DNA of 64,000 nucleotides from Planctomycetota bacterium (GTDB taxonomy: Bacteria; Planctomycetota; Phycisphaerae; UBA1845), in NCBI GenBank assembly GCA_024280855.1, contig JAJRPG010000085.1, forward strand, positions 47,190-111,189. The letters are read 5' to 3'. Numbering within the stretch: the first letter of the stretch is position 1; every line of letters begins with the position of its first letter. This document shows positions 1-59,992 of the stretch, piece by piece. Made by a program: the position numbers and the translations under genes. The notes below the pieces were generated by a model that did not search any database, had not been told where the DNA came from, and was given only the letters and a program-made list of their open reading frames with translations.

Positions 1-45
1 TACGAACGAAACTTCAGCGATGAGCGGTATGGAGGCCGGATTGAA

Positions 46-777
46 ATGGAACGAAGCCTTGTTGTCAGCGACGTAGACGGTACGCTGCTTGGCGACGAAG
101 GTGGCACGCGGCGGTTCGGCGAATTTATTGCGTTGCACCGGGCTTCGCTAAAGCTTGTCTACGCCTCGGGCCGTTTTTTTGATTCGCTTATTAAATCAAT
201 TCACGAACATCAGCTCCCCGCGCCCGACGCGATGATTTGCGGTGTGGGTAGCGAGATTCGAGATTACCCGTCCGGCGAAATTGATGGTCAATGGCAGCAG
301 CACGTTTTGCAGGTTTTTTGTGCAGACGATGTGCGAAAGGCTCTGCGGTCATTCCCTGGCTTGGTCGATCAACCTCAGGAGTGCCAGTCGCCCGGAAAAG
401 TAAGCTATTTTCTTCATAATGCTGGCGCGACTCAGCTTGACGCATTGCGTGACACACTAAAATTTAAGGGGATTCACTCGGATATCGTGTATAGCTCTGG
501 TCGCGATTTGGATGTCATGCCCCAAGGCGTCAACAAAGGTTCTGCGGCGATTCATTTGGCTAAGCGCTGGGAAATATCGCACAATAATATCGTTGTTTGT
601 GGGGATTCGGGCAACGATCTTCCGATGTTTCAGTTAGGCGTGCATGGTGTCATCGTGGCGAATGCTCAGGCAGAGCTAGCTGACTATCATCGGCCTGGTT
701 TGTTTCGTGCGACGAAGCCGTGTGCGGACGGTGTGTTAGAAGGCTTGAATTATTGGCTTACGGAAGCAGTGAATTAA
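46..777 (+). CDS. HAD-IIB hydrolase, sucrose-6-phosphate phosphatase-like (possibly the C-terminal domain of a longer SPS-type protein running off the 5' edge)
   Basis: HAD motifs VVSDVDGTLL, SGR, NKGSA and GDSGNDLPMF. The reading frame is open from nt 1 to 46, so an upstream extension cannot be excluded. The TAA stop abuts the next ATG (775-780). Confidence 0.7.
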   Translation: MERSLVVSDVDGTLLGDEGGTRRFGEFIALHRASLKLVYASGRFFDSLIKSIHEHQLPAPDAMICGVGSEIRDYPSGEIDGQWQQHVLQVFCADDVRKALRSFPGLVDQPQECQSPGKVSYFLHNAGATQLDALRDTLKFKGIHSDIVYSSGRDLDVMPQGVNKGSAAIHLAKRWEISHNNIVVCGDSGNDLPMFQLGVHGVIVANAQAELADYHRPGLFRATKPCADGVLEGLNYWLTEAVN

Positions 778-2103
778 ATGCACATCATTGATGAAGCATT
801 CGAGAAGGCCAAAGAGGTTCTTCATCTTAATATCACGGACCTAGGGTTCACGGCGTGTAGCCTGCAACACGATACGGATCCTAATAGTAATTATCGTAGT
901 GTCTGGGCGCGGGACTCTGCGATGACTTCGATTTGGGTTTTGCCGCTTGAAGATAAAGAGCTGACGCAATGCGCGAAGCGATCTTTGGAAACCATTCTTG
1001 GTGCGCAGACGCGCGATGGCCATCTGCCTAATTATGTAGATATAAAAACCGGGCATCCTGAGTATGGTGGCGTTGGGAATATCGCAGGGATCGATGGCTC
1101 GCTTTGGATATTGATCGCGGCTTGGAATTATGTGAAAGCCACCGGCGATGTTGAATTTGCCACGACGCACTTCGACAAATTGCATCGAACGATGAAATGG
1201 CTTCGTGCCCACGATTCGAATAACTGTGGGCTGCTGGAGATTCCCGAAGCCTCTGATTGGACTGATCTTTTTCCGCGCTCGTACAACGTGCTTTATGACG
1301 AGGTACTTTGGTATCGCGCGAATGTAGATTTTATTGAATTGCGTAAGCTGAACAACAGGCCTGTTGATCGATACATCAATCGTGCGGCCCGGATTCGGAA
1401 AATCCTAAATGACCAGTTTTGGCCCAGTCCTGATGCCAGCAGAGATTCGCCTGTATCTTTTGCCAGTACGCAGTTTGCGCTGGGCCGTACACGATATTTG
1501 ATTGCACAGATTACGCCGTTTGGTTTTAGTTGGCGCTGCGATGTATACGCCAATATCATCGCTTCGCTTTATGGTATTTTGGATGAAGAGCGATCCGAAA
1601 GAGTCTGGCGGTTTTTACGACAGATTGGCATTGATAAGCCCTATCCGGTTCGCGTGTTGTACCCCGCGATTAGGCCTGGTGATCCTGATTGGCGCGATTA
1701 CTTTTTGGTTAATCTTCAAAATCTGCCAGGTCATTATCATAATGGCGGCATTTGGCCATTTGTTGGCGGGTTGTGGGTTCGTTTTCTAAGTCGAATCGGT
1801 AAAAAACAACATGCCCAGGAAGCGCTGGAAAGCTTAGCCAAGCTCTGTCGGTCTGGTATCGATCAGGATTGGGAGTTTACTGAATGGGCGCACGGAACCA
1901 GCGGCGAACCAATGGGGAAAGCGTTTCAAACCTGGAGCGCCGCTTCGTATGTAGCTGCTTATATGAGAATGCATGGTGATAAAACCATAGAAATTGCATC
2001 CAGCGGTCCTGAAGAAATTAAGATACAGGAAGAGTGTGGCCTGCCAGATGCCGTGGCGGATAGCAGCATCGATCTAGATCGGGAAACGATTGACGAAACT
2101 TAA
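778..2103 (+). CDS. Six-hairpin glycoside hydrolase, alkaline/neutral invertase-like (GH100 / amylo-alpha-1,6-glucosidase superfamily)
   Basis: 441-aa ORF with WARDSAMT, EASDWTDLFPR..VLYDEVLWY and YHNGGIWPF motifs typical of GH100/GDE_C enzymes. Translationally coupled to the SPP-like gene, with fructokinase next door. Confidence 0.65.
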   Translation: MHIIDEAFEKAKEVLHLNITDLGFTACSLQHDTDPNSNYRSVWARDSAMTSIWVLPLEDKELTQCAKRSLETILGAQTRDGHLPNYVDIKTGHPEYGGVGNIAGIDGSLWILIAAWNYVKATGDVEFATTHFDKLHRTMKWLRAHDSNNCGLLEIPEASDWTDLFPRSYNVLYDEVLWYRANVDFIELRKLNNRPVDRYINRAARIRKILNDQFWPSPDASRDSPVSFASTQFALGRTRYLIAQITPFGFSWRCDVYANIIASLYGILDEERSERVWRFLRQIGIDKPYPVRVLYPAIRPGDPDWRDYFLVNLQNLPGHYHNGGIWPFVGGLWVRFLSRIGKKQHAQEALESLAKLCRSGIDQDWEFTEWAHGTSGEPMGKAFQTWSAASYVAAYMRMHGDKTIEIASSGPEEIKIQEECGLPDAVADSSIDLDRETIDET

Positions 2104-2119
2104 GCGACCTGTAGAAGTC

Positions 2120-3028
2120 TTAAGCCATTAGATGCTTTTTTTTTAGCGACTCGAAATCTGAGGATATGTTCGGCATCGCCCCCGCATGGGAGGCTACAAG
2201 TGAACCAACGTCATTGGCGAACGTAGCTATCTTATCCAAACTCTCTCGCTTCAATAAGCCATAGATTAACGCAGCGGTGAAAGCATCTCCAGCACCAACT
2301 GCGTCAGCGACTTCGATGGTCTTTCCCGGTATTTCAATATGATCGTTTTCGTCGGCTGCGAAACATCCATCTTCAGCTTTGGTAATGAACACATGCTTGG
2401 CTTTATATTTCTTGATTAAATGCGTGGCGAAGGATGCGTGGTCAGTCATGGTTATGTTTAGTAGATGAGATAGTGTCACGACTTCGTCAGCGTTGAGCTT
2501 GATGACGTGCGCTCGTGCCATGGATTGTTCAATCCAATCAACATGTAGCCAGGGTGGCCGAAGATTGATGTCGTATACGACCATCGCCTGCGACGCGGCT
2601 TGAATGGCTTGTGTAATTGAGGCTCTTGAAGTCTCGCAGCGTTGTGCCAGTGTTCCGAAACAGAGCGAGCCTGCGTGTGCAATCTGGTCGGTCAATTGGC
2701 TAGTCAATCGAATGTGGTCCCATGCGACGTTTTCGTGAATCGTGTAGCTGGGATGGTCAGGGTCTGCGGTATCAACGGTGACGGTCCCGGTTGGGTGGTT
2801 AGGGTCTCGGTGAATGCCAGCCGTATTTAACCCGTGAGATTGAATCGCATCTAATAGATCATCACCTAATGAGTCTACGCCAACACCCGATACGATTAAA
2901 CTTTCAAGGCCAAGCTGGTTGGCATGATAGGCTACGTTGGACGGTGCGCCGCCTGGCCTTTTTTCGTTTCCGAAGCAATCCCAAAGTAGTTCGCCGATGC
3001 CAATGATGAGTGGGTTATTATTTTTCAT
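2120..3028 (-). CDS. PfkB-family sugar kinase (fructokinase-like)
   Basis: C-terminal DAVGAGDAFTAAL signature and N-terminal IIGIGELLWD. The ORF extends to 3136, but the conserved N-terminus starts at ATG 3028 (MKNNNPLIIGIGE). Confidence 0.8.
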   Translation of the reverse strand: MKNNNPLIIGIGELLWDCFGNEKRPGGAPSNVAYHANQLGLESLIVSGVGVDSLGDDLLDAIQSHGLNTAGIHRDPNHPTGTVTVDTADPDHPSYTIHENVAWDHIRLTSQLTDQIAHAGSLCFGTLAQRCETSRASITQAIQAASQAMVVYDINLRPPWLHVDWIEQSMARAHVIKLNADEVVTLSHLLNITMTDHASFATHLIKKYKAKHVFITKAEDGCFAADENDHIEIPGKTIEVADAVGAGDAFTAALIYGLLKRESLDKIATFANDVGSLVASHAGAMPNISSDFESLKKKHLMA

Positions 3029-3137
3029 CTCTAAAAAATGGTGGTTGAGTGACACCTTAGGTGCATCTGGATGTGCCATGCTAACTAATTCGCGTCCAAC
3101 TCGCGCATGATTACAAAGTGGGATTAACAATCTCAAT

Positions 3138-3208
3138 CAACTGGACAAGGTGGGCGTCGCCCTCGAGCATTCCTTTCAGGTTGGAGGATTTTAAGTCCAA
3201 GACGCAGG
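3138..3208 (-). pseudogene. Decayed partial copy of tRNA-Leu(UAA): anticodon arm to 3' end plus 4 nt of flank; non-functional
   Basis: Ungapped alignment of 3138..3208 with 7651..7721 gives 51/71 identities. Identical runs include caactgg, caagg, cctttcagg and gattttaagtcc. Same orientation as the intact gene. The T-loop is destroyed and the D arm and 5' acceptor are absent. Confidence 0.55.
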
Positions 3209-3401
3209 ATCGTAAAGATTGTTTTGTACTATTGTCATTCCATCGAGAGTGAATGAGTGCGGCGCATCGCATGGCCTCGTGTTACACCTATTCACCCACA
3301 GAGCAGCGCATGGGTAATTAGATTTTTACAAGATTTTCAAACGATTCACAGTTGTTGATACCGGCAGGAACTCAAAGTGAGAAGCCTTCGCGATTATATG
3401 C

Positions 3402-3857
3402 CTATTCTAGCTGCGGGTTAAGTTTGATTGGGCTAGAGGGTTGGCAGAGTGGTGTGCTTCTTCCCGGAGCCGTGAGTAATTCTTCTATTGTCGTTGAGGC
3501 GAACGACTGTTCAACTAGTTCGGTGGCTTCGTCCAGTCGCTTGTGCAGGGGGCAAAGATTTGTCCCGTGCGTTTCAATTCCCAAGGGGCAGGAGTCAATC
3601 CTCTTGATTGGGGCAACGACGTTCACAACATCAAGAACTGTTATCGATTCTGCAGACCTAGCAAGAGTAAACCCACCTCCCAAACCTCGCTTAGAGTTAA
3701 CCAAACCAGCCTTACGCAATGTTTGTAGAACTTTGGGAAGATAACCAGCCGGTACTTTGGTCATTTCTACTAATGTCGGTGTTATCACTGGCTCTCCGCT
3801 CCCTTGAGCGATAGCTACGATGGCTCGTAAAGCGTACTCCGCAGTAGGTGAAATCAT
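3402..3857 (-). CDS. Rrf2-family transcriptional regulator (NsrR-like)
   Basis: N-terminal wHTH (AEYALRAIVAIA...LPKVLQTLRKAGLVNSKRGLGGGFTLAR) and a C-terminal Cys cluster (CPLGIETHGTNLCPL). Divergent from the qNor gene. Confidence 0.85.
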   Translation of the reverse strand: MISPTAEYALRAIVAIAQGSGEPVITPTLVEMTKVPAGYLPKVLQTLRKAGLVNSKRGLGGGFTLARSAESITVLDVVNVVAPIKRIDSCPLGIETHGTNLCPLHKRLDEATELVEQSFASTTIEELLTAPGRSTPLCQPSSPIKLNPQLE

Positions 3858-3877
3858 TGTAGTCTCCGAAACTAACT

Positions 3878-3899
3878 ATTTGGACCTTGACGTCCAAAT
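3878..3899. promoter_or_regulatory. Perfect inverted repeat ATTTGGAC-N6-GTCCAAAT in the Rrf2/qNor divergent region; candidate Rrf2 operator
   Basis: 8-bp arms read directly from the sequence. It lies 21 nt upstream of the Rrf2 start and 74 nt upstream of the proposed qNor start. A TTGACG hexamer sits in the spacer and right arm. Confidence 0.4.
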
Positions 3900-3972
3900 G
3901 GTACGCTATATGCTGGGAGACGTAAAGAGGGTATTTGGAGTCAATTGGCCACAAAGGTTCGGAGGTGTTTTG

Positions 3973-6237
3973 GTGAACTATAGAAAATATTGGATCACGT
4001 TTACAGGCGTAATGGTGATTTCGTTCGCTGTATTAGGTTATTATGGGAGAGAGCTGTATCGACAAGCGCCTCCTATTCCAACTCGAGTTGTGTTATCAGA
4101 CCAAACCGTGTTATTCACTGGTCAGGATATTTCTGATGGACAAAATGTTTGGCAATCGATGGGGGGGCAGGAGGTCGGTTCGGTATGGGGGCATGGGGCG
4201 TATGTCGCACCTGATTGGTCGGCTGATTGGTTGCACCGGGAATCTACATGGTTGCTGGAATATTGGGCGACAAACGACCACGGCAAGGCATATGCGTCGT
4301 TACACAAAGAAGTTCAAGCTTCACTTCGCCAGCGACTCAAGACCGAACTACGCACCAATACTTACGATTCTCAGACGGGCGACCTGCTAGTCTCGACTCA
4401 AAGAGCGGAAGCGATCCGCGTGGTAGGAACACACTACACCAAGCTGTTTGGAGACGATGCGTCACTTGATGAACTTCGTGATGCATACGCCATCCCACCG
4501 AACTCCATTAAGACATCAGATCGTAAAGAAAAGCTCAACGCTTTCTTTTTTTGGACGTCTTGGGTTTGTTCGACGAATCGGCCGGGTAAAGACATTACAT
4601 ACACCAACAACTGGCCAGCTGAAAATTTGATCGACAACCGTCCCACAAGCGCCATCTTAGTTTGGTCGGTGGTGAGCGTGGTGGTTTTGCTTGCGGGCAT
4701 TGGCGCACTTTCGTGGTACTTCGCAGTGATTCGTGGTAGGGATGAAGCGCCACACGATGTTCCGCACGCGAACCCCATGCTAGATCTTTCACCAACACCT
4801 TCTATGAGAGCGACGTTAAAATATTTTTGGATTGTGACGGCGCTGATGCTTGTACAGATTGGACTCGGGGCCATCACTGCCCACTACGGTGTTGAAGGCT
4901 CAGGTTTTTATGGGATTCCACTAGCTGAATGGTTACCCTATGCAGTGACTCGTACATGGCATTCTCAGCTTGGCATTTTCTGGATCGCAACCGCATGGCT
5001 TGGCACGGGATTATTCATGGCCCCAGCGGTTTCTGGGCATGAACCCAAGTTTCAGCGTCTGGGCGTTAATGTGCTGTGGGTTTGCTTGGTGGTGATCGTG
5101 GTAGGGTCGATGGCTGGTGAATGGCTCGGTGTACAGCAACGGCTAGGATTCGTCTCTAATTTTTGGTTTGGTCACCAGGGTTATGAATACGTCGACCTGG
5201 GCCGATTTTGGCAAATTTTTCTGCTCATAGGGTTGTTTCTTTGGCTTGCCCTCATGCTTCGTGCGATGTGGCCGGCGATCAGAAGGCCTAATGAGAACCG
5301 AAGTCTGCTGGGGCTATTTCTCGTCGCGTCTGCTGCAATAGCCATGTTTTATGGTGCAGGACTCATGTGGGGGCGACAAACCAACTTGGCTATCGCCGAG
5401 TATTGGCGTTGGTGGGTTGTCCATTTGTGGGTCGAGGGATTCTTCGAGGTTTTCGCTACGGTCGTGATCGCCTTTTTGTTCACGCGTATGGGATTGTTAC
5501 GCGTATCAACGGCTACGGCGGCGGCCTTGTTTTCGACGACGATATTTCTTGGTGGCGGCATTATTGGCACGTTTCACCATCTATACTTTACAGGAACACC
5601 AACGGCAGTCTTAGCCCTTGGTGCTACGTTCAGCGCGTTGGAGGTTGTTCCACTGGTTCTCATTGGAATGGAAGCCTACGAGGGCTTACGTCTCAGTCGC
5701 GTTCGTCCATGGGTTTCAGCCTACAAGTGGCCCATGTATTTTTTCGTGGCTGTTTCATTCTGGAACTTAGTTGGTGCCGGCTTATTCGGCTTCCTCATTA
5801 ATCCGCCGATCGCGTTGTACTACATGCAAGGCCTGAATACTACGGCTGTCCATGCGCACACTGCGCTGTTCGGCGTCTACGGCATGCTCGGTATCGGTCT
5901 CATGCTCTTTTGCCTGAAAGGAATAGCCGTTCGTCAGGTGTGGCGCACACGAGTATTGTCCTTCGCTTTTTGGTCAATAAACATTGGGTTAGCGCTGATG
6001 GTTTTAATTAGCGTGTTGCCAGTAGGGCTTATGCAAACCTGGGCAAGCGTAGAGTACGGAATGTGGTACGCAAGATCTGCGGAGTTTTTGCAGACAGACC
6101 TGGTAAGCACTCTGCGATGGCTGCGTGTCATCGGCGATACGATTTTCGCGGCTGGGATTGTTGCACTGGCGTGGTTTGTGCTGGGGCTAGTTACGGGTTG
6201 GTCAATCGAAAAAGAAGCTAAGTCGATTACAAAATGA
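3973..6237 (+). CDS. norB: Quinol-dependent nitric oxide reductase (qNor, single-subunit NorB/NorZ type)
   Basis: Heme-copper oxidase core (WWVVHLWVEGFFEVF, HHLYFTG, HAHTALFGVYG) with an N-terminal TM plus periplasmic extension, ~750 aa. The ORF opens at 3820 but overlaps the divergent Rrf2 gene. GTG 3973 is preceded by GGAGG (3961-3965). Confidence 0.88.
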   Translation: MNYRKYWITFTGVMVISFAVLGYYGRELYRQAPPIPTRVVLSDQTVLFTGQDISDGQNVWQSMGGQEVGSVWGHGAYVAPDWSADWLHRESTWLLEYWATNDHGKAYASLHKEVQASLRQRLKTELRTNTYDSQTGDLLVSTQRAEAIRVVGTHYTKLFGDDASLDELRDAYAIPPNSIKTSDRKEKLNAFFFWTSWVCSTNRPGKDITYTNNWPAENLIDNRPTSAILVWSVVSVVVLLAGIGALSWYFAVIRGRDEAPHDVPHANPMLDLSPTPSMRATLKYFWIVTALMLVQIGLGAITAHYGVEGSGFYGIPLAEWLPYAVTRTWHSQLGIFWIATAWLGTGLFMAPAVSGHEPKFQRLGVNVLWVCLVVIVVGSMAGEWLGVQQRLGFVSNFWFGHQGYEYVDLGRFWQIFLLIGLFLWLALMLRAMWPAIRRPNENRSLLGLFLVASAAIAMFYGAGLMWGRQTNLAIAEYWRWWVVHLWVEGFFEVFATVVIAFLFTRMGLLRVSTATAAALFSTTIFLGGGIIGTFHHLYFTGTPTAVLALGATFSALEVVPLVLIGMEAYEGLRLSRVRPWVSAYKWPMYFFVAVSFWNLVGAGLFGFLINPPIALYYMQGLNTTAVHAHTALFGVYGMLGIGLMLFCLKGIAVRQVWRTRVLSFAFWSINIGLALMVLISVLPVGLMQTWASVEYGMWYARSAEFLQTDLVSTLRWLRVIGDTIFAAGIVALAWFVLGLVTGWSIEKEAKSITK

Positions 6238-6293
6238 AACCACGAAGAATTGGTAACACCGGCAAGAATGGCCGGGGAAAAATGGAGATAGCT

Positions 6294-7028
6294 ATGTTCA
6301 CGAATGAATCAAGAGAACTTACCGTCGGAGAATTAGTCGTTGAAAATCCGAGCCGGGCACGTGTGTTTGAGAAGTTCGGTATTGACTATTGCTGTGGCGG
6401 TAAGATACCGCTCGCTCAAGCCTGTGGTAAGCGTGGTGCAGATATTGAGATTGTTCTGGAAGCGTTGCAACAGTGCGAAACCGGCGCATCACCGGAGTCT
6501 CAGAAGGATTGGTCTAAGGAACCGATGACATCATTAGTGGATCATATTCTGTTGACGCATCACGCATACCTTCGCGAGGAATTTCCACGTCTGACCCAAT
6601 TGACCGAAAGGGTGGCCCAAGTGCATGGCGAGCGTCGCTCTGAATTGCTTCAAGTACGCGATGTATTTATGGCGCTGCGCAATGAATTGGAAATGCACAT
6701 GCAAAAGGAAGAGCAGATTTTGTTCCCTATGATTAAACAGCTGGATTCTGACCCGGCAGGCGAGACAGTGGGCCACTGTGGGTCTATCGCGAATCCAATC
6801 AGCATGATGGAACACGAGCACGATAATGCTGGTGATGCTTTGGGTCAGTTGCGAGATTTGACCGGAGGGTTCGTCCCACCCGAAGACGCATGCAATACCT
6901 ACCGAGTCATGCTCGACAGCTTAGCCAATCTCGAAGCGGATCTTCATCAGCATATCCATAAGGAGAACAATATACTTTTCCCGATGGCTATCGCGAGGGA
7001 GACAAATGCTGTTCACCAAAATTCTTGA
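6294..7028 (+). CDS. ytfE: Iron-sulfur cluster repair di-iron protein (RIC / YtfE / ScdA family)
   Basis: N-terminal ScdA_N motif (FGIDYCCGG) and hemerythrin-like His/Glu repeats (HHAYLREE, HMQKEEQILFP, EHEHDNAGD, HIHKENNILFP). ATG 6294 has a GGAGA RBS; alternative starts are at 6282 and 6234. Confidence 0.88.
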   Translation: MFTNESRELTVGELVVENPSRARVFEKFGIDYCCGGKIPLAQACGKRGADIEIVLEALQQCETGASPESQKDWSKEPMTSLVDHILLTHHAYLREEFPRLTQLTERVAQVHGERRSELLQVRDVFMALRNELEMHMQKEEQILFPMIKQLDSDPAGETVGHCGSIANPISMMEHEHDNAGDALGQLRDLTGGFVPPEDACNTYRVMLDSLANLEADLHQHIHKENNILFPMAIARETNAVHQNS

Positions 7029-7163
7029 TTTCGTATGACATCTTGTTGGGCAGAAGTATATCTCGTTGGTCGAGAGCCTGCACAACATGGTAATACCTGA
7101 GAATGCACACTGCGGATAATTTTAGGCGACACTGCGTCATTCTCGTACTAAAAGGAGACAAAA

Positions 7164-7247
7164 ATGGAAGCACTAGGAATTATGTCGGGATTTATGTTTA
7201 TTGTTTTTTCTTTACCGTTTTTTCTGCTCGCGCTTTTGTTTGGGTAG
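7164..7247 (+). CDS. Small hydrophobic peptide (27 aa, MEALGIMSGFMFIVFSLPFFLLALLFG)
   Basis: ATG preceded by AAAGGAG (7151-7157). Single predicted TM helix, located downstream of the NO module. It is too short for the ORF track. No homology evidence. Confidence 0.3.
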   Translation: MEALGIMSGFMFIVFSLPFFLLALLFG

Positions 7248-7654
7248 AGGCTATCTGGTGACATACTCTAGTCCACTCATGGGGGAGTGGGCTAGCGTGA
7301 TCTTGAGTCTGTCGAGTTTTTTTCGCACTCATCTGTCTGGCTTCCTTTCGATTTCTTCAACCAGCGAAGCGTGTTAAGCTTTTGTGTTAGATCCAACGAT
7401 GAGGAGCAGGAGCGATACAGGCTGCAATTTCAATGGTTGGGGGAGCGCATGTTGCTTTGAGTAGTCACGGATTGGTGTGGACCGGTTGATTATTCAAAGA
7501 CTCGCAGAATATATTTGTTGCACAACAGAACAGTATCCGCACGCCGATGAAACGCGAAGCTGTGAATAAACTTTCAGCGGGTTAGGTTTTTACGAGATTC
7601 TTACGAGACTTTGTTTTTGTGATTTTCGCTTGCCCCAAAAACCGCACTTTCAAC

Positions 7655-7739
7655 TGGGCAAGGCGGGAGTCGAACCCGCACGTCCCTTTCAGGACAGGGG
7701 ATTTTAAGTCCCCGGCGTCTGCCATTCCGCCACTTGCCC
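7655..7739 (-). tRNA. tRNA-Leu (anticodon UAA), type II with long variable arm; CCA not encoded
   Basis: Reverse complement is GGGCAAGTGGCGGAATGGCAGACGCCGGGGACTTAAAATCCCCTGTCCTGAAAGGGACGTGCGGGTTCGACTCCCGCCTTGCCCA. It folds as a cloverleaf with a 7-bp acceptor, a GGGGA/TCCCC anticodon stem around loop CTTAAAA, and a GCGGG-TTCGACT-CCCGC T arm. Confidence 0.95.
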
Positions 7740-7758
7740 GCGTGAGCGTTAGACGAAG

Positions 7759-7787
7759 TTTATAAGCAAGAATTTGGAAATGGACAA
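7759..7787 (-). promoter_or_regulatory. Sigma70-like promoter for tRNA-Leu (TTGTCC-17 nt-TATAAA)
   Basis: On the minus strand the -35 TTGTCC is at 7787..7782, followed by a 17-nt spacer and the -10 TATAAA at 7764..7759. That is about 19 nt upstream of the mature tRNA 5' end. Confidence 0.45.
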
Positions 7788-7984
7788 GTATGTGTAAAAA
7801 AAACGCCTTGCATGAGAAGTAAGAACTCCTTACACTTGAGCTACTAAGGATTATTAGTCTGTCGAATTGCGGGTGTTTCCGCCCTTTCAATTACGGCAGT
7901 TGCTAGCATGTTAGGGGTCGGGTAAAAGCAAATTTTCTTACGCCCAGCCGGTTTTGTCGGGAAAATTGTACAGTTACGCATATT

Positions 7985-8596
7985 GTGGAGCTAGCTATGG
8001 GTGCAAAAGTAGCGGTGGGTGTTGCGGAAATTGATGGTATTCTCAAGGCGATGCTGACCCTCTCGCGGGCGACGGAGCGCGTGCTTGAGTCGAGCAGCGT
8101 CTCCAAATTTTCCGGGGAGACGGTTGGTGTATCCAAAGTTCAAGTGTTGAGGCTATTGAATACTCAAGGTGAGCAGATGCCCAGTCAGGTTGCGCGTTTT
8201 TTGGGCGTGAGTAAGCCTGCGGTAAGTCAAATCATTTCCGCGATGCTACGTTCAAAGCTGATCGCAAAAAAAGCTAAGTCTGTTGATGGCCGTGAAGTAT
8301 ACATTTGTTTGACTAAGCACGGGAAGACGGCGTTCCATGAAGTCGTTAAAGAGCAGCGTCATTTGGTTCGAACTGCGTTGAAGCATGTGGGCAACGGCGA
8401 AGCGAAAACCTGGGCAGCTTCTATGCATTCAATTAGCTCGGCTATTTCCAGAGCAGATAAGACATTCGATGATTACTGTTTACAATGTGGGGCACATGCT
8501 GATGGTAGATGTGTTTTGCAAGGTGGCGATTCCGGTTGTGCTTTCATGGAGAATGATAAAAAGTTTAAGTTGGATAGGCCCAGGGGCAGCAAGTAA
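7985..8596 (+). CDS. MarR-family winged-helix regulator with a C-terminal CX2CX7CX8CAF motif
   Basis: wHTH core (VQVLRLLNTQGEQMPSQVARFLGVSKPAVSQIISAMLRSKLI...DGREVYICLTKHG). Cys motif CLQCGAHADGRCVLQGGDSGCAF at 8477..8545. Confidence 0.75.
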   Translation: MELAMGAKVAVGVAEIDGILKAMLTLSRATERVLESSSVSKFSGETVGVSKVQVLRLLNTQGEQMPSQVARFLGVSKPAVSQIISAMLRSKLIAKKAKSVDGREVYICLTKHGKTAFHEVVKEQRHLVRTALKHVGNGEAKTWAASMHSISSAISRADKTFDDYCLQCGAHADGRCVLQGGDSGCAFMENDKKFKLDRPRGSK

Positions 8597-8997
8597 CTAG
8601 GTGTGATTGTTAGCGCCAATTCCATGATTGGCTGGTGTTCGTTATATAGTTCTCTGCCTTTACAAGCCCGTGTCTGGCCAAAAGTTCTGCGGGGAAATCA
8701 TCACGATTTGTCAGTGTGAGTGTACACTTTTCGATATGACGTGATTGTTTGGATGCTGGCTGAAAATAAATTTGCTTAATTTTGTTTTTGTTATGTGGCA
8801 ATCGCCTATAATGGATAGAGTATCGAAGCTGTTGTCTGGTTGTCACGGGACTGGAATGATATGGGACCGGGAAAAGTGGTATAAGCCGTATAGATGTTAG
8901 AAGCAGATATGACCATGAAATCAACCTATTTTAACCTTTCCATTGGGGATGTTACCTACGGGTTCCATACTCAGGAAACGTTTGGCCATGAGCATTC

Positions 8998-11900
8998 ATG
9001 CCCTTTGAGGTCATCATGCTATTTGCGCGAAAAAGTCTTGTGGCCTGCAGGATTTCGATTCGGCTTTTAATACCCGGGGGGGCTGCCGTGATCGTTTGTG
9101 AATCGAAAGTTGTTACCAAGTCTTTGTACCATGCCTTTTTTTGTCTATTGACTGGCTGCTTGTTGATGTTGGGGGCGTGTAATAGTGCGCCAGATATATC
9201 TTCTGGCGGGACCAACCAAGCGTCTGACACTGGAGATCCAAGTTCTGATTCTATGCCAGGTGACACTGTTGTTGTTATTGGAGCGGCTGATACCGGAGCG
9301 GATGACGACGACTTGTCACTCATCGCCAAGGCGGATGATTCGACGGACGGGCTTTGGCAGATTGGCGTCGAATCGAAGCGGCGCGTTTCATTGAATGAAT
9401 TCCGGTATGAATGGGATTTCGGAACCGGCGAGATTTTCACCGGCATGATGCAGCGCCGCGTATTTTCTAGCGCGGGTTTGTATACGATAACAGTAAAGGT
9501 GTTTAATCGAAATGACGTTGTTGTAGCTACACTTACTTTGGAAATTGATATTACGGCCCCTGGTGAACCGCCGGTGGCTGACGCTGGTCCTAATCAGGTG
9601 ACGCTTGAGGGCGACTTTGTGTTGCTTGATGGTGCAAATAGCAACGATCCCGCAGATGCGCCGCTGCTTTTCACGTGGACACAAATAGGCGGAACGCCAG
9701 TCTCTTTGGCTAATGCTGATGGCACGGTGGCAAGTTTCGCTGCGCCGCTCGTTGATGAAGACGAAACTATTCAATTCAAGCTTGCGGTGAGTAACGGTGT
9801 TAGTGTTGTCGAGGATATAGTTTTTGTTGATATTTTGAATCGAATCGATAATTCCACCAATACCCTAGTCGTTTATGCCGGTGAAGATCAGACGGTGGCT
9901 ATCGGAGAAACGGTTACGCTGGACGGTAGCCGAAGTAGCAGCACGGATGGGCCGTTATCGTTTTTGTGGACTCAGGTTTCCGGTACGTCGGTGACTATCA
10001 ATGGCGTTACAAGCAACATGGCTACTTTTGTAGCGCCGAATGTTTCCTCTGCGGACCTGTTGACATTCGAGTTAATAGCTTCTGAAGGTAGCCAAATTTC
10101 TCAGGATTTGGTTAACGTGACGGTTGAAGCGAGCGTGACTGATGACTGTCCGAGTGATGCGAATAAAACTGATCCCGGGCAGTGCGGATGCGGCATTGCG
10201 GATACGGATTCTGATGGCGACGGTGTGCTTGATTGTAATGACGGGTGTCCAAATGATCCTGGTAAAAGTGATCCGGGCACTTGTGGGTGTGGTGTTTCGG
10301 ATGTTGATGCGAATGGTGATGGTGTCGCGGATTGTACCGATCAATGTCCCGATGATCCTAATAAAAGCTCACCAGGCCAATGTGGCTGTGGCGTGAGTGA
10401 TACTGATTCCGACAACGATGGTACGCCCGATTGCAATGATGGATGTCCTGGCGATGCGAATAAAATCGTGGTTGGGATATGCGGCTGTGGCGAGCTGGAT
10501 GTTGATACCGACGGGGACGGGGCGTTGGATTGTAACGACCAGTGCCCAGCTGACGCGAACAAAACTCTGCCGGGGATATGTGGCTGCGGAAGAGCGGATG
10601 TCGATGGCGACGGTGATGGCGCTCTTGATTGTAACGATCAATGTCCCAAGGATGCCAACAAAACGCTAGCGGGTGTGTGCGGATGTGGGAATGTCGACAA
10701 GGATGTTAATGGAGATGGCATTTGTGACTCGCAGGCGCCTACGGTTAGCGACCAAAGTGCTACGACCAATCAAGACTCAGCGAAAACCATTACACTGGCT
10801 GGTATTGATTTAGACGGCGATGATCTGACGTTTAGCATTACGTCCGGGCCAGGTAACGGCTCGTTGGGTTCGGTGAATAATAGTGGGACGAGTAGTGCGA
10901 CAGTGGTTTATACCCCCACGGTTGGTTTTTCTGGCACAGACACTTTTGACTTCAAGGCGAATGATGGCGCGATAGATTCTAATGTCGGGACCGTAACGAT
11001 TACTGTCAGCGCCGTGTCGCAAAATCTGACGCTAAGTTTTTCGACCTATTTAGGCGGTAGCAGTGAAGATACGATTCGTGATGTCGTTGTTGATGCAGCT
11101 GGGTTTATATATGTTACTGGCGGCACGAGGTCTTCGGATTTCCCCACGACGGCTGGGGCTTATGACCGGACATTGAATACTGGCAGTTCGTTGGTGCATG
11201 ATGTTTTCGTAGTGAAGTATTCGCCAGCAGGTAGCATCGTTTGGTCTACTCTGCTAGGCGGGCCTGGCTACGATCGCGCATATGCGATTGAAGTGGATCA
11301 AGCGGGTTTTGTATATGTTGGCGGTAGGGCTGGGGCTGGTTTCCCAACGACTAGCGGCGTTTTGCAGCCCAATTTTGCAGGTGATGTTGATCCGAATAAT
11401 AAATATGGCACTCAGGACGGATTTGTCGCTAAACTTTCGCCTGATGGCTCAAGCCTTGTTTGGTCAACATATTTTGGCGACGACGACCGTGCGTTTATTC
11501 GAGATATTGATATCGACAGCCAGGGTTTTGTTTATTTGGCTTTGGCTGAGCTTTCGCGCACGAATCCTCATGTGACAAGCGGGGCGTATCAAACAAGTCA
11601 TGGCGGCTCTACGGATGGCGTCATTGCGAAGTTATCTACAGATGCGACGCAGGTGATGTGGGCTAGTTACTTCGGGGGCAGTGGTCGTGATGTCGGCACG
11701 CCGTCCATTCGGGTGGACTCCTTTGGGCAAGTTCATGTGCTTGGGTTTACGAGTTCAACTAATATCCCTACGACAGCAGGGGCTTATGACCGCACGTTTA
11801 ATGGCGGCAAGGGGGATTTGCATTTAGCGAAGTTTTCGGCAGATGGTTCGCAGTTGCTTTATGGAACCTATCTGGGTGGGTCCGATGTTGAGTTCACTGA

Positions 11901-12468
11901 GACGCATGGGCTGGCGCTGGATAGTGCGGGCAATGCGTATGTAGCTGCGACGACCAGGTCTACGAATTTTCCGACGACGAGCGGTGCGTTTCAAAGGGCG
12001 TATGGCGGAAATGGCGGGTCTGGAACAGGTAGCGGGACGAATTATTCCGGCGATGGTTTTGTTGCTAAAATCTCGGCAAATGGTTCTACCTTGTTATCTA
12101 GCACGTTCCTTGGTGGTCGATATGGCGATGGTGTTGAAGGCATTTCAGTGATGTCAAATGGTGATGTGTTTGTAGCGGGTACGACATTTTCTGATAATTT
12201 TCCTACCACGGCGGATGCTTACCAGAGCAATGGCGGGACCAAGGGCGACTTCTTCGGCGCGTTGCTTGCCAGTGATTTGTCATCCGTAAAATATGTGAGT
12301 TATTTAGGTGGTAGTCGCGACGATTACGGTCGAAGTGCAGCGACGGATGACAATGGCTTTGTGTACGTTGTTGGTCATACTAAATCGACGAATTGGCCCA
12401 GACTCAACGCCGCGCAGACTACGCTAGGCGGAAGTTTGGATGGGGGGATTGCTAAATTCGCGTACTAG
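8998..12468 (+). CDS. Large secreted or lipid-anchored surface protein: PKD-like Ig domains, six TSP3-like Ca-binding/Cys repeats, a cadherin/Ig-like domain and SBBP beta-propeller repeats
   Basis: Lipobox-like LLMLGAC near the N-terminus. Two PKD-like segments (PVADAGPNQ..., VYAGEDQTV...). Repeats of the form DxDxDGxxDCxDxCPxDxxKxxPGxCGCG. An FSGTDTFDFKANDG...VTITV domain. Recurrent xFVxKxSxDGSxLxxSTYLGG propeller repeats. A GTG at 9088 is an alternative start. Confidence 0.85.
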   Translation: MPFEVIMLFARKSLVACRISIRLLIPGGAAVIVCESKVVTKSLYHAFFCLLTGCLLMLGACNSAPDISSGGTNQASDTGDPSSDSMPGDTVVVIGAADTGADDDDLSLIAKADDSTDGLWQIGVESKRRVSLNEFRYEWDFGTGEIFTGMMQRRVFSSAGLYTITVKVFNRNDVVVATLTLEIDITAPGEPPVADAGPNQVTLEGDFVLLDGANSNDPADAPLLFTWTQIGGTPVSLANADGTVASFAAPLVDEDETIQFKLAVSNGVSVVEDIVFVDILNRIDNSTNTLVVYAGEDQTVAIGETVTLDGSRSSSTDGPLSFLWTQVSGTSVTINGVTSNMATFVAPNVSSADLLTFELIASEGSQISQDLVNVTVEASVTDDCPSDANKTDPGQCGCGIADTDSDGDGVLDCNDGCPNDPGKSDPGTCGCGVSDVDANGDGVADCTDQCPDDPNKSSPGQCGCGVSDTDSDNDGTPDCNDGCPGDANKIVVGICGCGELDVDTDGDGALDCNDQCPADANKTLPGICGCGRADVDGDGDGALDCNDQCPKDANKTLAGVCGCGNVDKDVNGDGICDSQAPTVSDQSATTNQDSAKTITLAGIDLDGDDLTFSITSGPGNGSLGSVNNSGTSSATVVYTPTVGFSGTDTFDFKANDGAIDSNVGTVTITVSAVSQNLTLSFSTYLGGSSEDTIRDVVVDAAGFIYVTGGTRSSDFPTTAGAYDRTLNTGSSLVHDVFVVKYSPAGSIVWSTLLGGPGYDRAYAIEVDQAGFVYVGGRAGAGFPTTSGVLQPNFAGDVDPNNKYGTQDGFVAKLSPDGSSLVWSTYFGDDDRAFIRDIDIDSQGFVYLALAELSRTNPHVTSGAYQTSHGGSTDGVIAKLSTDATQVMWASYFGGSGRDVGTPSIRVDSFGQVHVLGFTSSTNIPTTAGAYDRTFNGGKGDLHLAKFSADGSQLLYGTYLGGSDVEFTETHGLALDSAGNAYVAATTRSTNFPTTSGAFQRAYGGNGGSGTGSGTNYSGDGFVAKISANGSTLLSSTFLGGRYGDGVEGISVMSNGDVFVAGTTFSDNFPTTADAYQSNGGTKGDFFGALLASDLSSVKYVSYLGGSRDDYGRSAATDDNGFVYVVGHTKSTNWPRLNAAQTTLGGSLDGGIAKFAY
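10141..10734 (+). repeat. Six tandem 99-nt (33-aa) coding repeats (TSP3-like Asp-rich plus CGCG module)
   Basis: Six consecutive units starting DDCPSDANKTDPGQCGCGIADTDSDGDGVLDCN. The spurious alternate-frame ORFs at 10072..10669 mirror the periodicity. Confidence 0.85.
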
Positions 12469-12515
12469 AATTGTGGCTATAGCAGCGGATTCGCATCGAT
12501 GCCAGTAAACAATGG

Positions 12516-12673
12516 GTGCAAGACAGATTAGGCGGGATGGGCACACCGAGTCGGGGTCAGAGCCGCACGGCGCAAGCCTGCGGGCAAGTCTTGTGAATCT
12601 ATGGGTAGCGAAGACATGCCACCAGGCTCGCGCTAGGTGCTCTGACATGAATCGCCGCAATTCTGTCTTGCAC
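12516..12673. mobile_element. MITE-like non-coding element, copy A (158 bp, 12-bp perfect terminal inverted repeats, imperfect palindromic core)
   Basis: TIR GTGCAAGACAGA (12516-12527) pairs with TCTGTCTTGCAC (12662-12673). Flanking direct repeat cagtaaacaatgg (12503-12515) versus cagtaaacgatgg (12674-12686). The core is shared with 23542..23685. Confidence 0.5.
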
Positions 12674-12723
12674 CAGTAAACGATGGCTAGCTAGCGTGGC
12701 TGTGTTGCTGTAAAGTGCCGTCC

Positions 12724-15066
12724 ATGAGACGGATAATTAGAAATGATGCTTGGCGGTGCTGCGGTCTAATGGTCTTGCTGTTTGTTTGCGCAGGACAAAT
12801 CGCAATCGCGCAGGATAGTGGTACATCAAAACAGGGCGACGCTGCGACTAAGGCTGCGACTAAGGCTGCGGCTGATTCCGCGGCTTCGGATAAGAAATCT
12901 GCTAAACAAATCAAGCCTCGACGCACGCTCGATCTTAGTAATCCGCGTGCGACGATGCAGACATTTCTGCTAGCGATGCAGGATGCCGTCGGTGAGCATC
13001 CAGAGCGCATAAACGATGCGGTTCAATGTTTGAATCTTTCAGAGCTGGAAGGTGATGAAGCTGCGAAGTCTGAGCGAGCGCAGCGATTAGCTACGCGCTT
13101 GCATGTTGTTGTGGATAAGATCGCAGTGCGCCTTGATGATATTCCGGAAAATCCTGAATCACTATCGTTTATAGTTTACGCTTTCGGTGCTGACGAAGAT
13201 GGGCATGATGCTTCGCAGATTGTTATTGCGAGCGATCCTGTTGCGAGCGCGTGGCTGTTTACGCCGCAGACTTTGTCGTCGATGGTTTCGTTTGAGCAGT
13301 CGGTAGCGGAGACGGTAAAGCCTGATGAGGCGAAGGATTCTGACGTGCCAGCGGCTCGTCGGTCTGCGCGAGCAGCGATGGGCGGATTTCTGAAGGCGAT
13401 GAATGCCACGCCGCAAGATACAGAGCAAGCTTTGCATTTCCTGGACCCTACAGGCCGAGATGCGGAAGTTTGGGATGTGCGCGGTAAAGAGATAGCTATA
13501 AAGCTGAAAAACGTGTTGGACAAAATCAAGGAGGTCGTGCTTCTCGATATTCCAGACGACCCGGCTGGTGAGACGTATGTTTGGTATCAGTCGAGTGATG
13601 GGGCTTCGCGCATCGCGATGGCGAGAATTGCAGAAGTGCCCAAATTTCCCAAGGATTGGAAATACACGCCGCAAAAAGGTGAATGGCGTATCTCGTCGCA
13701 GACGTTGGATGCGGTTGATGTGCTGTATGGCGAATTTGAGGATAAACAAATCGTGCAAGCATTGCGCGAAGCGGGCGTTGAGGAATCGTTGTCGCTGACG
13801 ATGCAACTTGAACGCATAATGCCGCCTCGACTGCGAGAGGATTTTCTTGGCCTGACGTTGTGGAAGTGGTGTGCGCTGCTTTTGTTTATTCCTGCTGGTT
13901 GGCTGATTCAGTTGGTCACTGCTTTTATCGCTTCGATTTTGCTTCGTAATTGGTTGCAACGACAACGGCTGGATTTAGAAATCAAAGCCCGGCGGCAGAC
14001 GGCTCGCTCTATTGGGGCGGTGTTGACCGTTTTGGTCTGGTATTACGCGATTCAGTTTTTAGCTTTACCTGAGCAGTTACTGGGGACACTGGCACGCGGG
14101 CTAAAACTCGCACTTGGTTTGACGACGGTGTGGGTTGGCTATCGTGTGGTTGACATCATCGGGGGCAAGATTGCGTCCACGAAGGAAGTTCAGCTAACAC
14201 GTTTCGATGACGTGCTGATTCCGATGTTGCGAAAAATCCTTCGCGTTCTTGTCGTTGTGGTCACGCTGATTTTTGTGGTGCAATGGATGGGGCAAGATTG
14301 GACGACGCTGCTGGGGGCCTTGGGCGTCGGTGGTGTGGCGTTAGCTTTTGCCGCGCAGGATACGATTGGTAACTTTTTCGGTTCGATTACCGTTTTGTTT
14401 GACCGCCCTTTTGGCATTGGCGACTGGATTGTCATGGGCGATGTTGAGGGCACGGTGGAGCGGGTTGGTTTTCGTTCTACCCGGGTGCGGACTTTTTATA
14501 ATTCCGTGATAACCGTGCCTAATGCAAAAATGATTAATATGAACGTCGATAACTACGGCGCTCGCTCGTTTCGTCGGGTGCGCATTATGTTATCGCTTAC
14601 TTATAGTACGCCGCCTGCGAAGATAGATGCGTTTTGCGAAGGTGTTCGTGAACTGTTGCGGCTTCATCCTTACACAAGAAAAGACTATTACCAGGTGTAT
14701 TTCAATCAGTTCGCAGCTTCCTCGCTTGATGTGCTATTGTATGCTTTTTTTGAAGTGCCGGATTGGAGCACGGAGCTGCGCGAGCGTCATAATTTATTCT
14801 TAGACATTATGCGTTTAGCTAAGCGGCTTGGCGTTGAGTTCGCCTATCCCACGACGACTATTTGGATGGAGCGTGCGAAGCGCGGTGAAGGGAAGGGTTT
14901 AGGCGATGTCGATAAATTCCCTGCGGACGCTCACGCTGCGGACGCTCACGCTGCGGGCGTTTCTCACGCGGCTGAATTGTTTGAGCAGGCGTATGGACAG
15001 CCTACGAAAAAGCCTTCGCCTGTAGTAATTGAAACATCGCCTCGTTCTCAACGGCCAAGCAAATGA
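12724..15066 (+). CDS. Mechanosensitive ion channel (MscS family) with a large N-terminal periplasmic domain
   Basis: Signal peptide MRRIIRNDAWRCCGLMVLLFVCAGQIAIAQ. MscS core GNFFGSITVLFDRPFGIGDWIVMGDVEGTVERVGFRSTRVRTFYNSVITVPN. The ORF opens at GTG 12715. Confidence 0.85.
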   Translation: MRRIIRNDAWRCCGLMVLLFVCAGQIAIAQDSGTSKQGDAATKAATKAAADSAASDKKSAKQIKPRRTLDLSNPRATMQTFLLAMQDAVGEHPERINDAVQCLNLSELEGDEAAKSERAQRLATRLHVVVDKIAVRLDDIPENPESLSFIVYAFGADEDGHDASQIVIASDPVASAWLFTPQTLSSMVSFEQSVAETVKPDEAKDSDVPAARRSARAAMGGFLKAMNATPQDTEQALHFLDPTGRDAEVWDVRGKEIAIKLKNVLDKIKEVVLLDIPDDPAGETYVWYQSSDGASRIAMARIAEVPKFPKDWKYTPQKGEWRISSQTLDAVDVLYGEFEDKQIVQALREAGVEESLSLTMQLERIMPPRLREDFLGLTLWKWCALLLFIPAGWLIQLVTAFIASILLRNWLQRQRLDLEIKARRQTARSIGAVLTVLVWYYAIQFLALPEQLLGTLARGLKLALGLTTVWVGYRVVDIIGGKIASTKEVQLTRFDDVLIPMLRKILRVLVVVVTLIFVVQWMGQDWTTLLGALGVGGVALAFAAQDTIGNFFGSITVLFDRPFGIGDWIVMGDVEGTVERVGFRSTRVRTFYNSVITVPNAKMINMNVDNYGARSFRRVRIMLSLTYSTPPAKIDAFCEGVRELLRLHPYTRKDYYQVYFNQFAASSLDVLLYAFFEVPDWSTELRERHNLFLDIMRLAKRLGVEFAYPTTTIWMERAKRGEGKGLGDVDKFPADAHAADAHAAGVSHAAELFEQAYGQPTKKPSPVVIETSPRSQRPSK

Positions 15067-15114
15067 TGCTTCATCTTAGTGGTCAAAATGGCCAAGCATT
15101 CGAGAGGTTAAGCT

Positions 15115-59017: not shown

Positions 59018-59992
59018 CTAAGTAAGTTGCATCGCATTTGTATCATGGGCAGCCATCGGGCTTTCGCCACACAAGACAGGATCAATCGGACTACCATCCG
59101 ATGACATGGCTAATGGATTAGATCTTGATCCGCATGCTGAAATCTGGCTATCTCGATAAGCAAGGGAGATTCCGAGAACGTCCAAAATTAGTCCGACTCG
59201 CCCATCGCCAAGGATGGCCGCCCCGGAAATTCCGCGAAGACCTTCGAACCGTTCACCGAGCGACTTAATGACAACTTGCTGCTGTCCGAGCAACTCATCT
59301 ACGACAAGCCCGATCTCTCCACTTGCGTATTGGGCAATCACTACCATCGCATTACATGGATCAACGTACTCGCCGAGCTGGAACAACGGCCCTAATGGAA
59401 CGAGCGGAATCAGACGACCCCGAACATTGAGTACGGCACCAGAGTGCTGCACAGTCGTGATCTGTCCCGGCTTGGGACGCAGCGCCTGCTCAACCGCGAT
59501 GGTTTGGATGATGAAGCGTTCCGAACCAACTCGCAGGAGCATGCCATCAATGATAGCCAGCGTCAGCGGAAGGCGAATCGAAAACGTACTCCCTTTGCCG
59601 AGGGTCGATACGATGTCACATTTCCCTCTCAGGTTCTCTATATTTCGCCGAACTACATCCATGCCTACCCCGCGCCCGGATACGCCAGTCACGACCTCAG
59701 CAGTCGAGAACCCGGGCGCGAATATGAGGTTGTATGCTTGCTCGTCGGAGAGACGCTCACCCGGTTGCACGATGCCCTTCTCAATCGCCTTCTTGATGAG
59801 TGCGTTAGGGTCGAGTCCTTTCCCGTCATCGGTAATTTCAACAACTATGTTACCGCCACTATGAAATGCGGAGAGCGTCACATTTCCCGAATCCGACTTT
59901 CCTGCTGCACGCCGCGCATCGAGTGGCTCGATGCCATGATCCACAGCGTTCCGAACCATATGCACAAGCGGATCGCCGATCTGCTGAATCAC
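59018..59992 (-). CDS. cheA: CheA histidine kinase, C-terminal fragment (P4 HATPase and P5 CheW-like domains)
   Basis: N box HMVRNAVDHGIE, G1 DDGKGLD, G2 GVSGRGVGMD and a CheW-like tail. Separated from the N-terminal fragment by a frameshift at a T5/A5 run (60039..60043). Confidence 0.85.
   Translation of the reverse strand: MIQQIGDPLVHMVRNAVDHGIEPLDARRAAGKSDSGNVTLSAFHSGGNIVVEITDDGKGLDPNALIKKAIEKGIVQPGERLSDEQAYNLIFAPGFSTAEVVTGVSGRGVGMDVVRRNIENLRGKCDIVSTLGKGSTFSIRLPLTLAIIDGMLLRVGSERFIIQTIAVEQALRPKPGQITTVQHSGAVLNVRGRLIPLVPLGPLFQLGEYVDPCNAMVVIAQYASGEIGLVVDELLGQQQVVIKSLGERFEGLRGISGAAILGDGRVGLILDVLGISLAYRDSQISACGSRSNPLAMSSDGSPIDPVLCGESPMAAHDTNAMQLT

Follow-up and report, generated by a model that had tools for sequence, protein, structure and literature searches.

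The stretch of DNA analysed here (64 kb in full length, below called the window; all coordinates are window positions) comes from a member of the Phycisphaerae (Planctomycetota) and carries a compact set of genes for coping with nitric oxide (NO): an Rrf2-family regulator, a quinol-dependent NO reductase (qNor), an iron-sulfur (Fe-S) cluster repair protein (RIC) and a micro-protein. These genes lie between an intact tRNA-Leu(UAA) gene and a displaced, decayed copy of the 3' part of that gene, at a locus where two related genomes have the tRNA gene but no insert. The most likely history, with a probability of about 75%, is that an element larger than the present insert and equipped with an integrase entered at tRNA-Leu once the lineage had separated from its closest sequenced relative, the metagenome-assembled genome (MAG) OFTM182, and was then trimmed to its cargo, leaving a fossil tRNA-targeted islet. 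A preliminary description of this DNA had already proposed that the NO module is a tRNA-targeted islet. Its insertion at the 3' end of tRNA-Leu and its footprint resembling attachment (att) sites are borne out by a significant repeat and two empty sites, while the decay of an integrase, a distinct composition and the naming of the regulator after NsrR are not.

The tRNA gene and its displaced fragment

The tRNA-Leu(UAA) gene is the sole tRNA called by ARAGORN within the window. It is the regenerated target, on the attL side, with its 3' end toward the insert. The fragment lies on the downstream side of the intact tRNA, in direct orientation, and abuts the PfkB gene of the host flank. The gapless, same-orientation alignment of 3138..3208 with 7651..7721 given in the preliminary description (51/71 identical) is exact, and one more base of flank can be added to it. 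With this base, the fragment begins at the anticodon stem and takes in the tRNA 3' end and 5 nt of flank (TCAAC, from 3137). A repeat search delimits a core of 62 nt, 3137..3198 vs 7650..7711, with 77% identity (48/62). The longest exact run in the repeat is a 13-nt block, GGATTTTAAGTCC, consisting of the anticodon loop and 3 bp of stem on each side. Such a run is ordinary in an alignment of 72–77% identity, and selection on it is not claimed.

A chance origin of the fragment is excluded. When the 71-mer is compared without gaps to both strands of the whole window, its second-best match is 34/71, and in 100 first-order Markov simulations of the 64 kb the best match had a mean of 35.3 and never exceeded 41, so the significance check that had been proposed earlier comes out clearly on the side of true homology. 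The binomial probability of 51/71 is ~1e-15 per position, or ~1e-10 when corrected for all positions. Homology breaks at the anticodon stem. The match is only 2/18 over the rest of the tRNA on its 5' side, a part that the preliminary description had correctly given as missing, and 8/30 on the far side. This abrupt stop marks the fragment as a truncated 3' piece; a whole pseudogene decaying uniformly would not end in this way. At 3137..3208, no tRNA is called by ARAGORN or by Rfam (E≤10).

Empty sites in related genomes

In a scan of species-representative genomes with PfkB, the window falls within the Phycisphaerae, and OFTM182 (L001 among the loci compared) is closest, with 75% PfkB identity. 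A metagenome scan with PfkB for closer relatives of the host gave none above 55%, and the best matches in a search of 5.8 billion proteins were only 75%, 73% and 68%. In OFTM182, tRNA-Leu(UAA) is followed by PfkB after 105 nt and has MarR as its other neighbour. A second genome, L145 (GCA_024276605.1; PfkB 68%), shows the same order: MarR, tRNA-Leu, a 115-nt spacer and PfkB. The tRNA is identical at 85/85 positions in the window and both relatives, each of which has a single tRNA-Leu and no tRNA fragment at this locus. The comparison with relatives suggested in the preliminary description has thus turned up two genomes with the tRNA-Leu locus and without the insert. By tblastx, OFTM182 and window 1..17,250 are colinear over 17 kb apart from ~4.5 kb that OFTM182 lacks and that fits exactly into the interval from the tRNA 3' end to PfkB. 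The spacer between tRNA and PfkB in OFTM182 has its homologue on the outer side of the fragment (window 3079..3136), and the DNA directly downstream of the intact tRNA in the window is unrelated to that spacer. The insertion boundary coincides with the 3' end of the tRNA to within 5 nt.

Amino-acid identities over four host genes are 0.811 for window and OFTM182, 0.754 for window and L145, and 0.766 for OFTM182 and L145, which makes L145 the outgroup. Since the site is empty in both sister and outgroup, the 4.4-kb insertion is derived and arose in the lineage of the window, one gain being more parsimonious than two precise losses. From 23 to 28% of the fragment's positions differ from the unchanged tRNA, corresponding to Jukes-Cantor distances of ~0.27–0.35 substitutions per site. 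At four-fold degenerate sites of the host genes, window and OFTM182 are 45.8% identical (distance ~0.96, or ~0.48 per lineage, probably an underestimate). On these figures the scar looks somewhat younger than the split between window and OFTM182, consistent with a derived insertion.

An empty site by itself gives no polarity, as excision between att sites would restore it cleanly, and the cassette might be ancestral at tRNA-Leu, with OFTM182 and L145 having lost it by precise excision or direct-repeat recombination. This is very improbable, as the losses would have to be independent in sister and outgroup, both relatives still have the cassette at unrelated loci (see below), the fragment is less diverged than expected for decay since before the split, and cassette distances appear incongruent with the host tree. 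The fragment could also be something other than an att scar, either the remnant of a tandem tRNA-Leu duplicate or a chance or functional tRNA-like sequence, the cassette having been put between the two by illegitimate recombination or rearrangement. The lack of an integrase, the imperfect repeat and the host-like composition of the insert would suit such an origin, but a decayed whole duplicate would hold ~70% identity across the 5' third, where the match falls to 2/18 from the anticodon stem. The single, fragment-free tRNA-Leu of the relatives, the boundary within 5 nt of the tRNA 3' end and the simulations, which exclude chance, likewise speak against it, and it is given very little weight.

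On the 5' side of tRNA-Leu, some 60 nt (CATACTTGTCCATTTGCAAATTCTTGCTTATAAAC) are shared by the three genomes (window 7740..7810, OFTM182 9740..9810, L145 6560..6636). This stretch, presumably the tRNA promoter, is far better kept than other intergenic DNA, unlike the spacer that follows the tRNA, where conservation is poor.

Genes of the insert

The bracketed DNA (3209..7654, 4446 nt) contains Rrf2, qNor, RIC and a tiny ORF as its only non-overlapping open reading frames (ORFs; Table 1). The preliminary description had named the same NO genes and the tiny ORF, and had stated that no integrase is present, all of which is correct. Its 0.6 kb of non-coding DNA next to the tRNA is in fact two separate unique stretches of 193 nt (3209..3401) and 407 nt (7248..7654), to which a 135-nt spacer between RIC and the tiny ORF can be added.

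Table 1. Features of the tRNA-Leu locus, the insert and its host flanks.
Feature	Position	Strand	Evidence
PfkB-family sugar kinase, host flank; followed by genes for a GH100-like invertase and sucrose-phosphate phosphatase	2120..3079	-	Pfam; colinear with OFTM182 and L145
Displaced, decayed tRNA-Leu 3' fragment (attR-like scar)	3137..3208	-	51/71 identity; core 48/62
Unique non-coding left end of insert	3209..3401		No similarity to cassette flanks of relatives; no protein-family signal
Rrf2-family transcriptional regulator, 151 aa, divergent from qNor	3402..3857	-	Pfam Rrf2, 1.8e-26
Divergent promoter/operator region, 115 nt	3858..3972		Motif conservation
qNor, quinol-dependent nitric-oxide reductase, 754 aa, GTG start	3973..6237	+	Pfam NorB_cytochrome_c-like, 2.8e-71; COX1, 5e-57
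RIC/YtfE-type di-iron Fe-S cluster repair protein (maximal ORF)	6234..7028	+	TIGR03652 FeS_repair_RIC, 270.7 bits vs cut-off 204.7; Pfam ScdA_N and Hemerythrin
Hydrophobic micro-protein, 27 aa (MEALGIMSGFMFIVFSLPFFLLALLFG), fourth cassette gene	7164..7247	+	Strong GGAG ribosome-binding site 6 nt upstream; tblastn
Unique non-coding right end of insert, adjoining tRNA 3' end	7248..7654		No similarity to relatives; no integrase relic in six frames
Intact tRNA-Leu(UAA) gene	7655..7739	-	ARAGORN; Rfam tRNA model, 56.3 bits, E=1.5e-10
MarR-family regulator, other host flank; followed by a large PKD/SBBP surface protein	7985..8596	+	Pfam; colinear with OFTM182 and L145

The regulator passes the NCBIfam model rrf2_super (99.8 bits, cut-off 73.3) and misses the NsrR equivalog model NF008240 by a wide distance (43.7 bits, cut-off 182). 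The term NsrR-like used in the preliminary description is therefore a label taken from context. The cysteines are unusually spaced, with C90 and C102 in the usual region and a further one, C138. Two motifs stand out in the promoter region shared with qNor: positions 3878..3899 form the perfect palindrome ATTTGGAC-N6-GTCCAAAT, and the half-site ATTTGGAGTC occupies 3933..3942. Neither motif differs among five genomes (the window and the loci L135, L137, L138 and L139 described below), while the surrounding intergenic bases vary. From this pattern of conservation, the palindrome is most simply read as the candidate operator of a non-canonical NO-responsive Rrf2 regulator; it presumably differs from the enterobacterial NsrR consensus.

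In Proteobacteria and Firmicutes, NsrR-regulated NO-stress regulons combine nsrR with hmp, ytfE/RIC or norB. The cassette in the window resembles them in having an Rrf2-family regulator beside NO-detoxifying and Fe-S-repair genes, and a palindromic (candidate) operator in a divergent promoter. It differs in a regulator that lies below the NsrR cut-off and has unusual Cys spacing, and in the extra gene for the 27-aa micro-protein.

On its maximal ORF, qNor matches PF22085 at residues 87–267 and PF00115 at residues 331–775, and thus unites an N-terminal NorC-like domain and heme-copper oxidase subunit I in one polypeptide of ~750 aa, the architecture that identifies a qNOR. A database protein (P0001, 754 aa) is 100% identical to it, and its homologues are named nitric-oxide reductase large subunit. 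For RIC, the homologues are 234–241 aa long, so that the true start is probably ~25 codons downstream of that of the maximal ORF.

The micro-protein is matched by tblastn downstream of RIC or qNor in L137 (3e-6; 5497..5577), L135 (5e-6; 13310..13390) and L138 (7e-3; 3015..3092). Most differences in the DNA alignment affect third codon positions, and past the stop codon the similarity is lost. The four Phycisphaerae genomes share the motif LFSLPFFxxALLFG in a gene that follows RIC, or qNor where RIC is absent. By this coding signature the tiny ORF is a real conserved gene, and its product could act with qNor as a small membrane partner or assembly factor that has so far escaped notice. At 27 aa, the ORF is too short for most gene callers.

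The cassette in other genomes

Homologues of qNor with 84–90% identity are common in planctomycete MAGs, and ten related cassette loci (L135–L144) were examined. Rrf2 adjoins qNor in all of the ten whose contig reaches that side, two showing only a truncated upstream ORF. RIC is usually present and is missing in L138, L141, L142 and L143. The neighbouring genes are different every time: peptidase M43 and Band_7 (L135/L136), lysyl endopeptidase and methyltransferase (L137), PhoU (L138), NnrS (L139), an RND efflux system (L140), a P-type ATPase (L141), tRNA-Thr and an SNF2 helicase (L142), SSF and a histidine kinase (L143), and sulfatase and IleRS (L144). This reflects either frequent relocation of the cassette or very low synteny in these planctomycetes. 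L137 belongs to the same assembly as the empty site of OFTM182, and L138 to that of L145, so both empty-site genomes have the cassette at another locus; of these two copies, only that of the sister, OFTM182, includes RIC. Similarity of the DNA between the window and the relatives is limited to the coding cassette (~3420..7080) and the micro-ORF, with 73–77% identity. None of the genes that flank the cassette in the relatives, which would mark an ancestral empty locus, occurs in the window.

In L142 (GCA_024278775.1), tRNA-Thr(CGU) at 2684..2757 (minus strand) has its 3' end facing the qNor end 137 nt away, a geometry like that in the window. The other end of this cassette runs off the contig.

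The history of the cargo appears to depart from that of the host. For two cassette genes in the three taxa, amino-acid identity is lowest between window and OFTM182 (0.842, vs 0.850 and 0.854), although these are the closest pair by host genes. Four-fold-site identity of this pair is 0.383 for the cassette vs 0.458 for host genes, and cassette distances between OFTM182 and L145 match their host distances. This suggests that the cassette in the window is a xenologue, acquired horizontally from an unsampled relative of similar composition.

Ends of the insert

An 18-nt sequence recurs in direct orientation in the two unique ends, as TTAGATTTTTACAAGATT at 3318..3335 and as TTAGGTTTTTACGAGATT at 7582..7599, with 16/18 positions identical. 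None of 300 shuffles reaches 16. The second copy is followed by a partial tandem one (7601..7610), and the rest of the window has no close match. The copies are 110 nt and 56 nt from the respective core copies, and an in-silico circle brings both within ~260 bp. From this placement, the repeats may be former arm-type (P / P') integrase sites of the element's own attachment site, attP.

A sub-threshold match of the Rfam model CRISPR-DR2 at 3571..3600 (E=1.2) lies inside the Rrf2 gene and is dismissed as chance.

Proposed course of integration

After the lineage of the window had left its closest sequenced relative, an integrative element would have recombined with the chromosomal tRNA-Leu(UAA) gene. 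Its attP would have held a partial copy of the tRNA gene that began at the anticodon stem and included 5 nt beyond the 3' end, and a tyrosine integrase would have carried out site-specific recombination with the crossover in or near the anticodon loop. The element's sequence would thereby have regenerated the tRNA, and the original 3' part would have been displaced by 4.4 kb to its position beside PfkB, where it decayed, presumably neutrally, to ~72–77% identity. The integrase and any other backbone genes would later have been deleted, leaving ~0.6 kb of unique end DNA. The cargo would be a self-contained NO-stress regulon. The Rrf2 repressor is presumed to bind ATTTGGAC-N6-GTCCAAAT between its own gene and a presumed operon of qNor, RIC and the micro-protein, and damage by NO to the Rrf2 sensor would release repression. 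Reduction of NO to N2O with quinol by qNor, and repair of nitrosylated Fe-S clusters by RIC, would follow.

Several results weigh against this course of events. One is the missing integrase. Stop-free six-frame pieces of at least 25 aa were taken from 7000..7660 and 3180..3420 and the ten longest compared with Pfam at E≤10; the unique DNA gave only noise, with no Phage_integrase match and no other relic of a recombinase. Nor is there an integrase among 20 further ORFs scanned in the window, all of them ordinary chromosomal genes. A blastn search of phages and plasmids with the whole insert found only distant qNor genes and unrelated tRNA-Leu, and a scan of viral contigs for elements carrying this tRNA 3' end gave 0 matches. 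At the other ten related loci, no flanking repeats, tRNA fragments or integrases above chance surround the cassette, so its tRNA-targeted mobility is documented only once. The incongruence between cassette and host is moderate (z ~2.5 at four-fold sites, three genomes), and the 18-nt repeat was noticed by eye before it was tested, which makes the arm-site reading post hoc and a lead. The two att copies are neither intact nor near-identical (72% over 71 nt, 77% over 62 nt), and for this reason no present-day mobility can be claimed. Finally, the composition of the insert is not atypical and is indistinguishable from that of the host: its GC content is 0.489 vs 0.499 for the window, the GC content at third codon positions is like that of the flanks, and its tetranucleotide distance is at the 61st percentile, 39% of equal-sized windows being at least as atypical. 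The compositional signal that the preliminary description had proposed to look for is thus absent, an outcome that neither supports nor refutes an islet; it matches a donor from the same clade, as the 73–77% DNA identity of the cassettes would allow, or amelioration.

The negative integrase search also bears on how the mobility genes were lost. With a scar diverged by only ~23–28%, a point-mutated integrase pseudogene should remain recognisable. The absence of any relic, together with the ~0.6 kb of non-cassette DNA that is left, indicates that the integrase was either deleted outright or never internal to the insert and acting in trans. The earlier suggestion that the mobility genes have since decayed is therefore abandoned, as no frame holds a relic at E≤10 and the ~0.6 kb leaves no room for one.

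An integrase acting in trans is the basis of the alternative that comes next in weight. Here a miniature element, made up of the cassette and an attP of ~260 bp and comparable to a cis-mobilizable element (CIME) or a miniature inverted-repeat transposable element (MITE), would have entered tRNA-Leu by recombination, with the integrase supplied from outside, by the recipient or by an element transferred along with it. This would account for the small amount of non-cassette DNA with no coding relic, and for candidate arm-type repeats at both ends; the different neighbourhood in each of ten related genomes hints at recurrent relocation, and CIMEs that keep att sites without integration genes are documented (PMC5704250). 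Against it, no att-like repeats or tRNA fragments flank the cassettes of the relatives, the unique ends and the 18-nt motif are absent from their loci, no integrase is visible in the 64 kb, and low synteny could account for the varied neighbourhoods without any mobility of the cassette. It is on balance unlikely.

A broader version would make the cassette of Rrf2, qNor, RIC and micro-protein a recurrently mobile, integrase-less mini-island of the Phycisphaerae, with attP-like ends and arm-type repeats of its own, moved in trans by resident integrases specific for tRNA genes (tDNA). If true, this would explain why its neighbourhoods differ in ten genomes and why it stands once more beside a tRNA 3' end (tRNA-Thr, in L142), and the window would keep the only copy with a legible integration scar. 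This is a speculative reading, held to be quite improbable.

Comparison with known elements

The preferred history, integration of a larger element followed by trimming, has its closest parallels among the tDNA islands of the Islander collection (Hudson, Lau and Williams 2015), where 3760/3919 islands have 3' fragments and 2083/3919 an anticodon-centred attP (PMC4383910); the sublocation classes used there are those of Williams 2002. The insert shares with these islands an intact, regenerated tRNA and a displaced 3' fragment in direct orientation at the two ends, a block of homology that starts from the anticodon stem, as in the anticodon-centred type of attP, and an empty site in relatives. 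It differs in having no tyrosine integrase and no mobility backbone, in att copies of only 72–77% identity and in its very small size (4.4 kb, three to four cargo genes), and the Islander filters would reject it. Lacking both an internal integrase and intact att sites, it does not qualify as an active island.

CIMEs are defined as cis-mobilizable elements that lack integration and transfer genes and keep their att sites (Guedon et al. 2017 review, PMC5704250). The insert resembles these, and decayed remnants of integrative and conjugative or integrative and mobilizable elements, in being bounded by attL and attR with no integration and transfer genes of its own. In contrast to CIMEs, whose att sites are usable by definition, its attR is eroded to 72–77%, and no tandem accretion with a functional element is seen. 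With attR so heavily mutated, the unit is most likely immobile now.

A precedent for small metabolic operons at the 3' ends of small-RNA genes is provided by the vcrABC vinyl-chloride respiration islands of Dehalococcoides at ssrA (PMC3146451). They too are reported to be small respiratory or detoxification operons with a regulator, inserted site-specifically at the 3' end of a small RNA and flanked by direct repeats of that gene's 3' end. The target there is transfer-messenger RNA instead of tRNA-Leu, in another phylum and with another cargo.

Searches of the literature turned up no account of this cassette, nor of islets targeted to tRNA genes in Phycisphaerae, and mobile elements of Planctomycetota are little described. 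The locus would be a clean, polarised case of horizontal relocation of a complete NO defence regulon in this phylum, comprising sensor, operator, reductase, repair protein and small membrane peptide. It suggests that a single small plug-in unit, placed at a tRNA gene, can confer NO tolerance based on qNor and hence N2O production, and that such units can lose every mobility gene yet leave a datable scar. The understanding of tRNA-targeted islands is unchanged by it; the mechanism is unsurprising, and its value is that of a well-supported case study. Two leads for further work emerge, the 27-aa peptide conserved alongside qNor and the conserved candidate operator of the Rrf2 regulator.

Other features of the region

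The sucrose-metabolism cluster beside the tRNA, with sucrose-phosphate phosphatase, a GH100-like invertase and a PfkB fructokinase, is kept in all three genomes (window 46..3079, OFTM182 10001..14329, L145 6837..10966). The relatives add a glycosyltransferase resembling sucrose-phosphate synthase, and in L145 there is no separate gene call for sucrose-phosphate phosphatase between the invertase and the glycosyltransferase. Further along the window, CheA is split over the adjacent ORFs 59018..59992 and 60034..61470 (both on the minus strand), the former with the Hpt and dimerisation domains and the latter with the HATPase_c and CheW domains. It sits in a chemotaxis cluster, with CheB, CheR, HDOD and FapA nearby, and the division may reflect a frameshift, an error in sequencing or a kinase that truly consists of two proteins.

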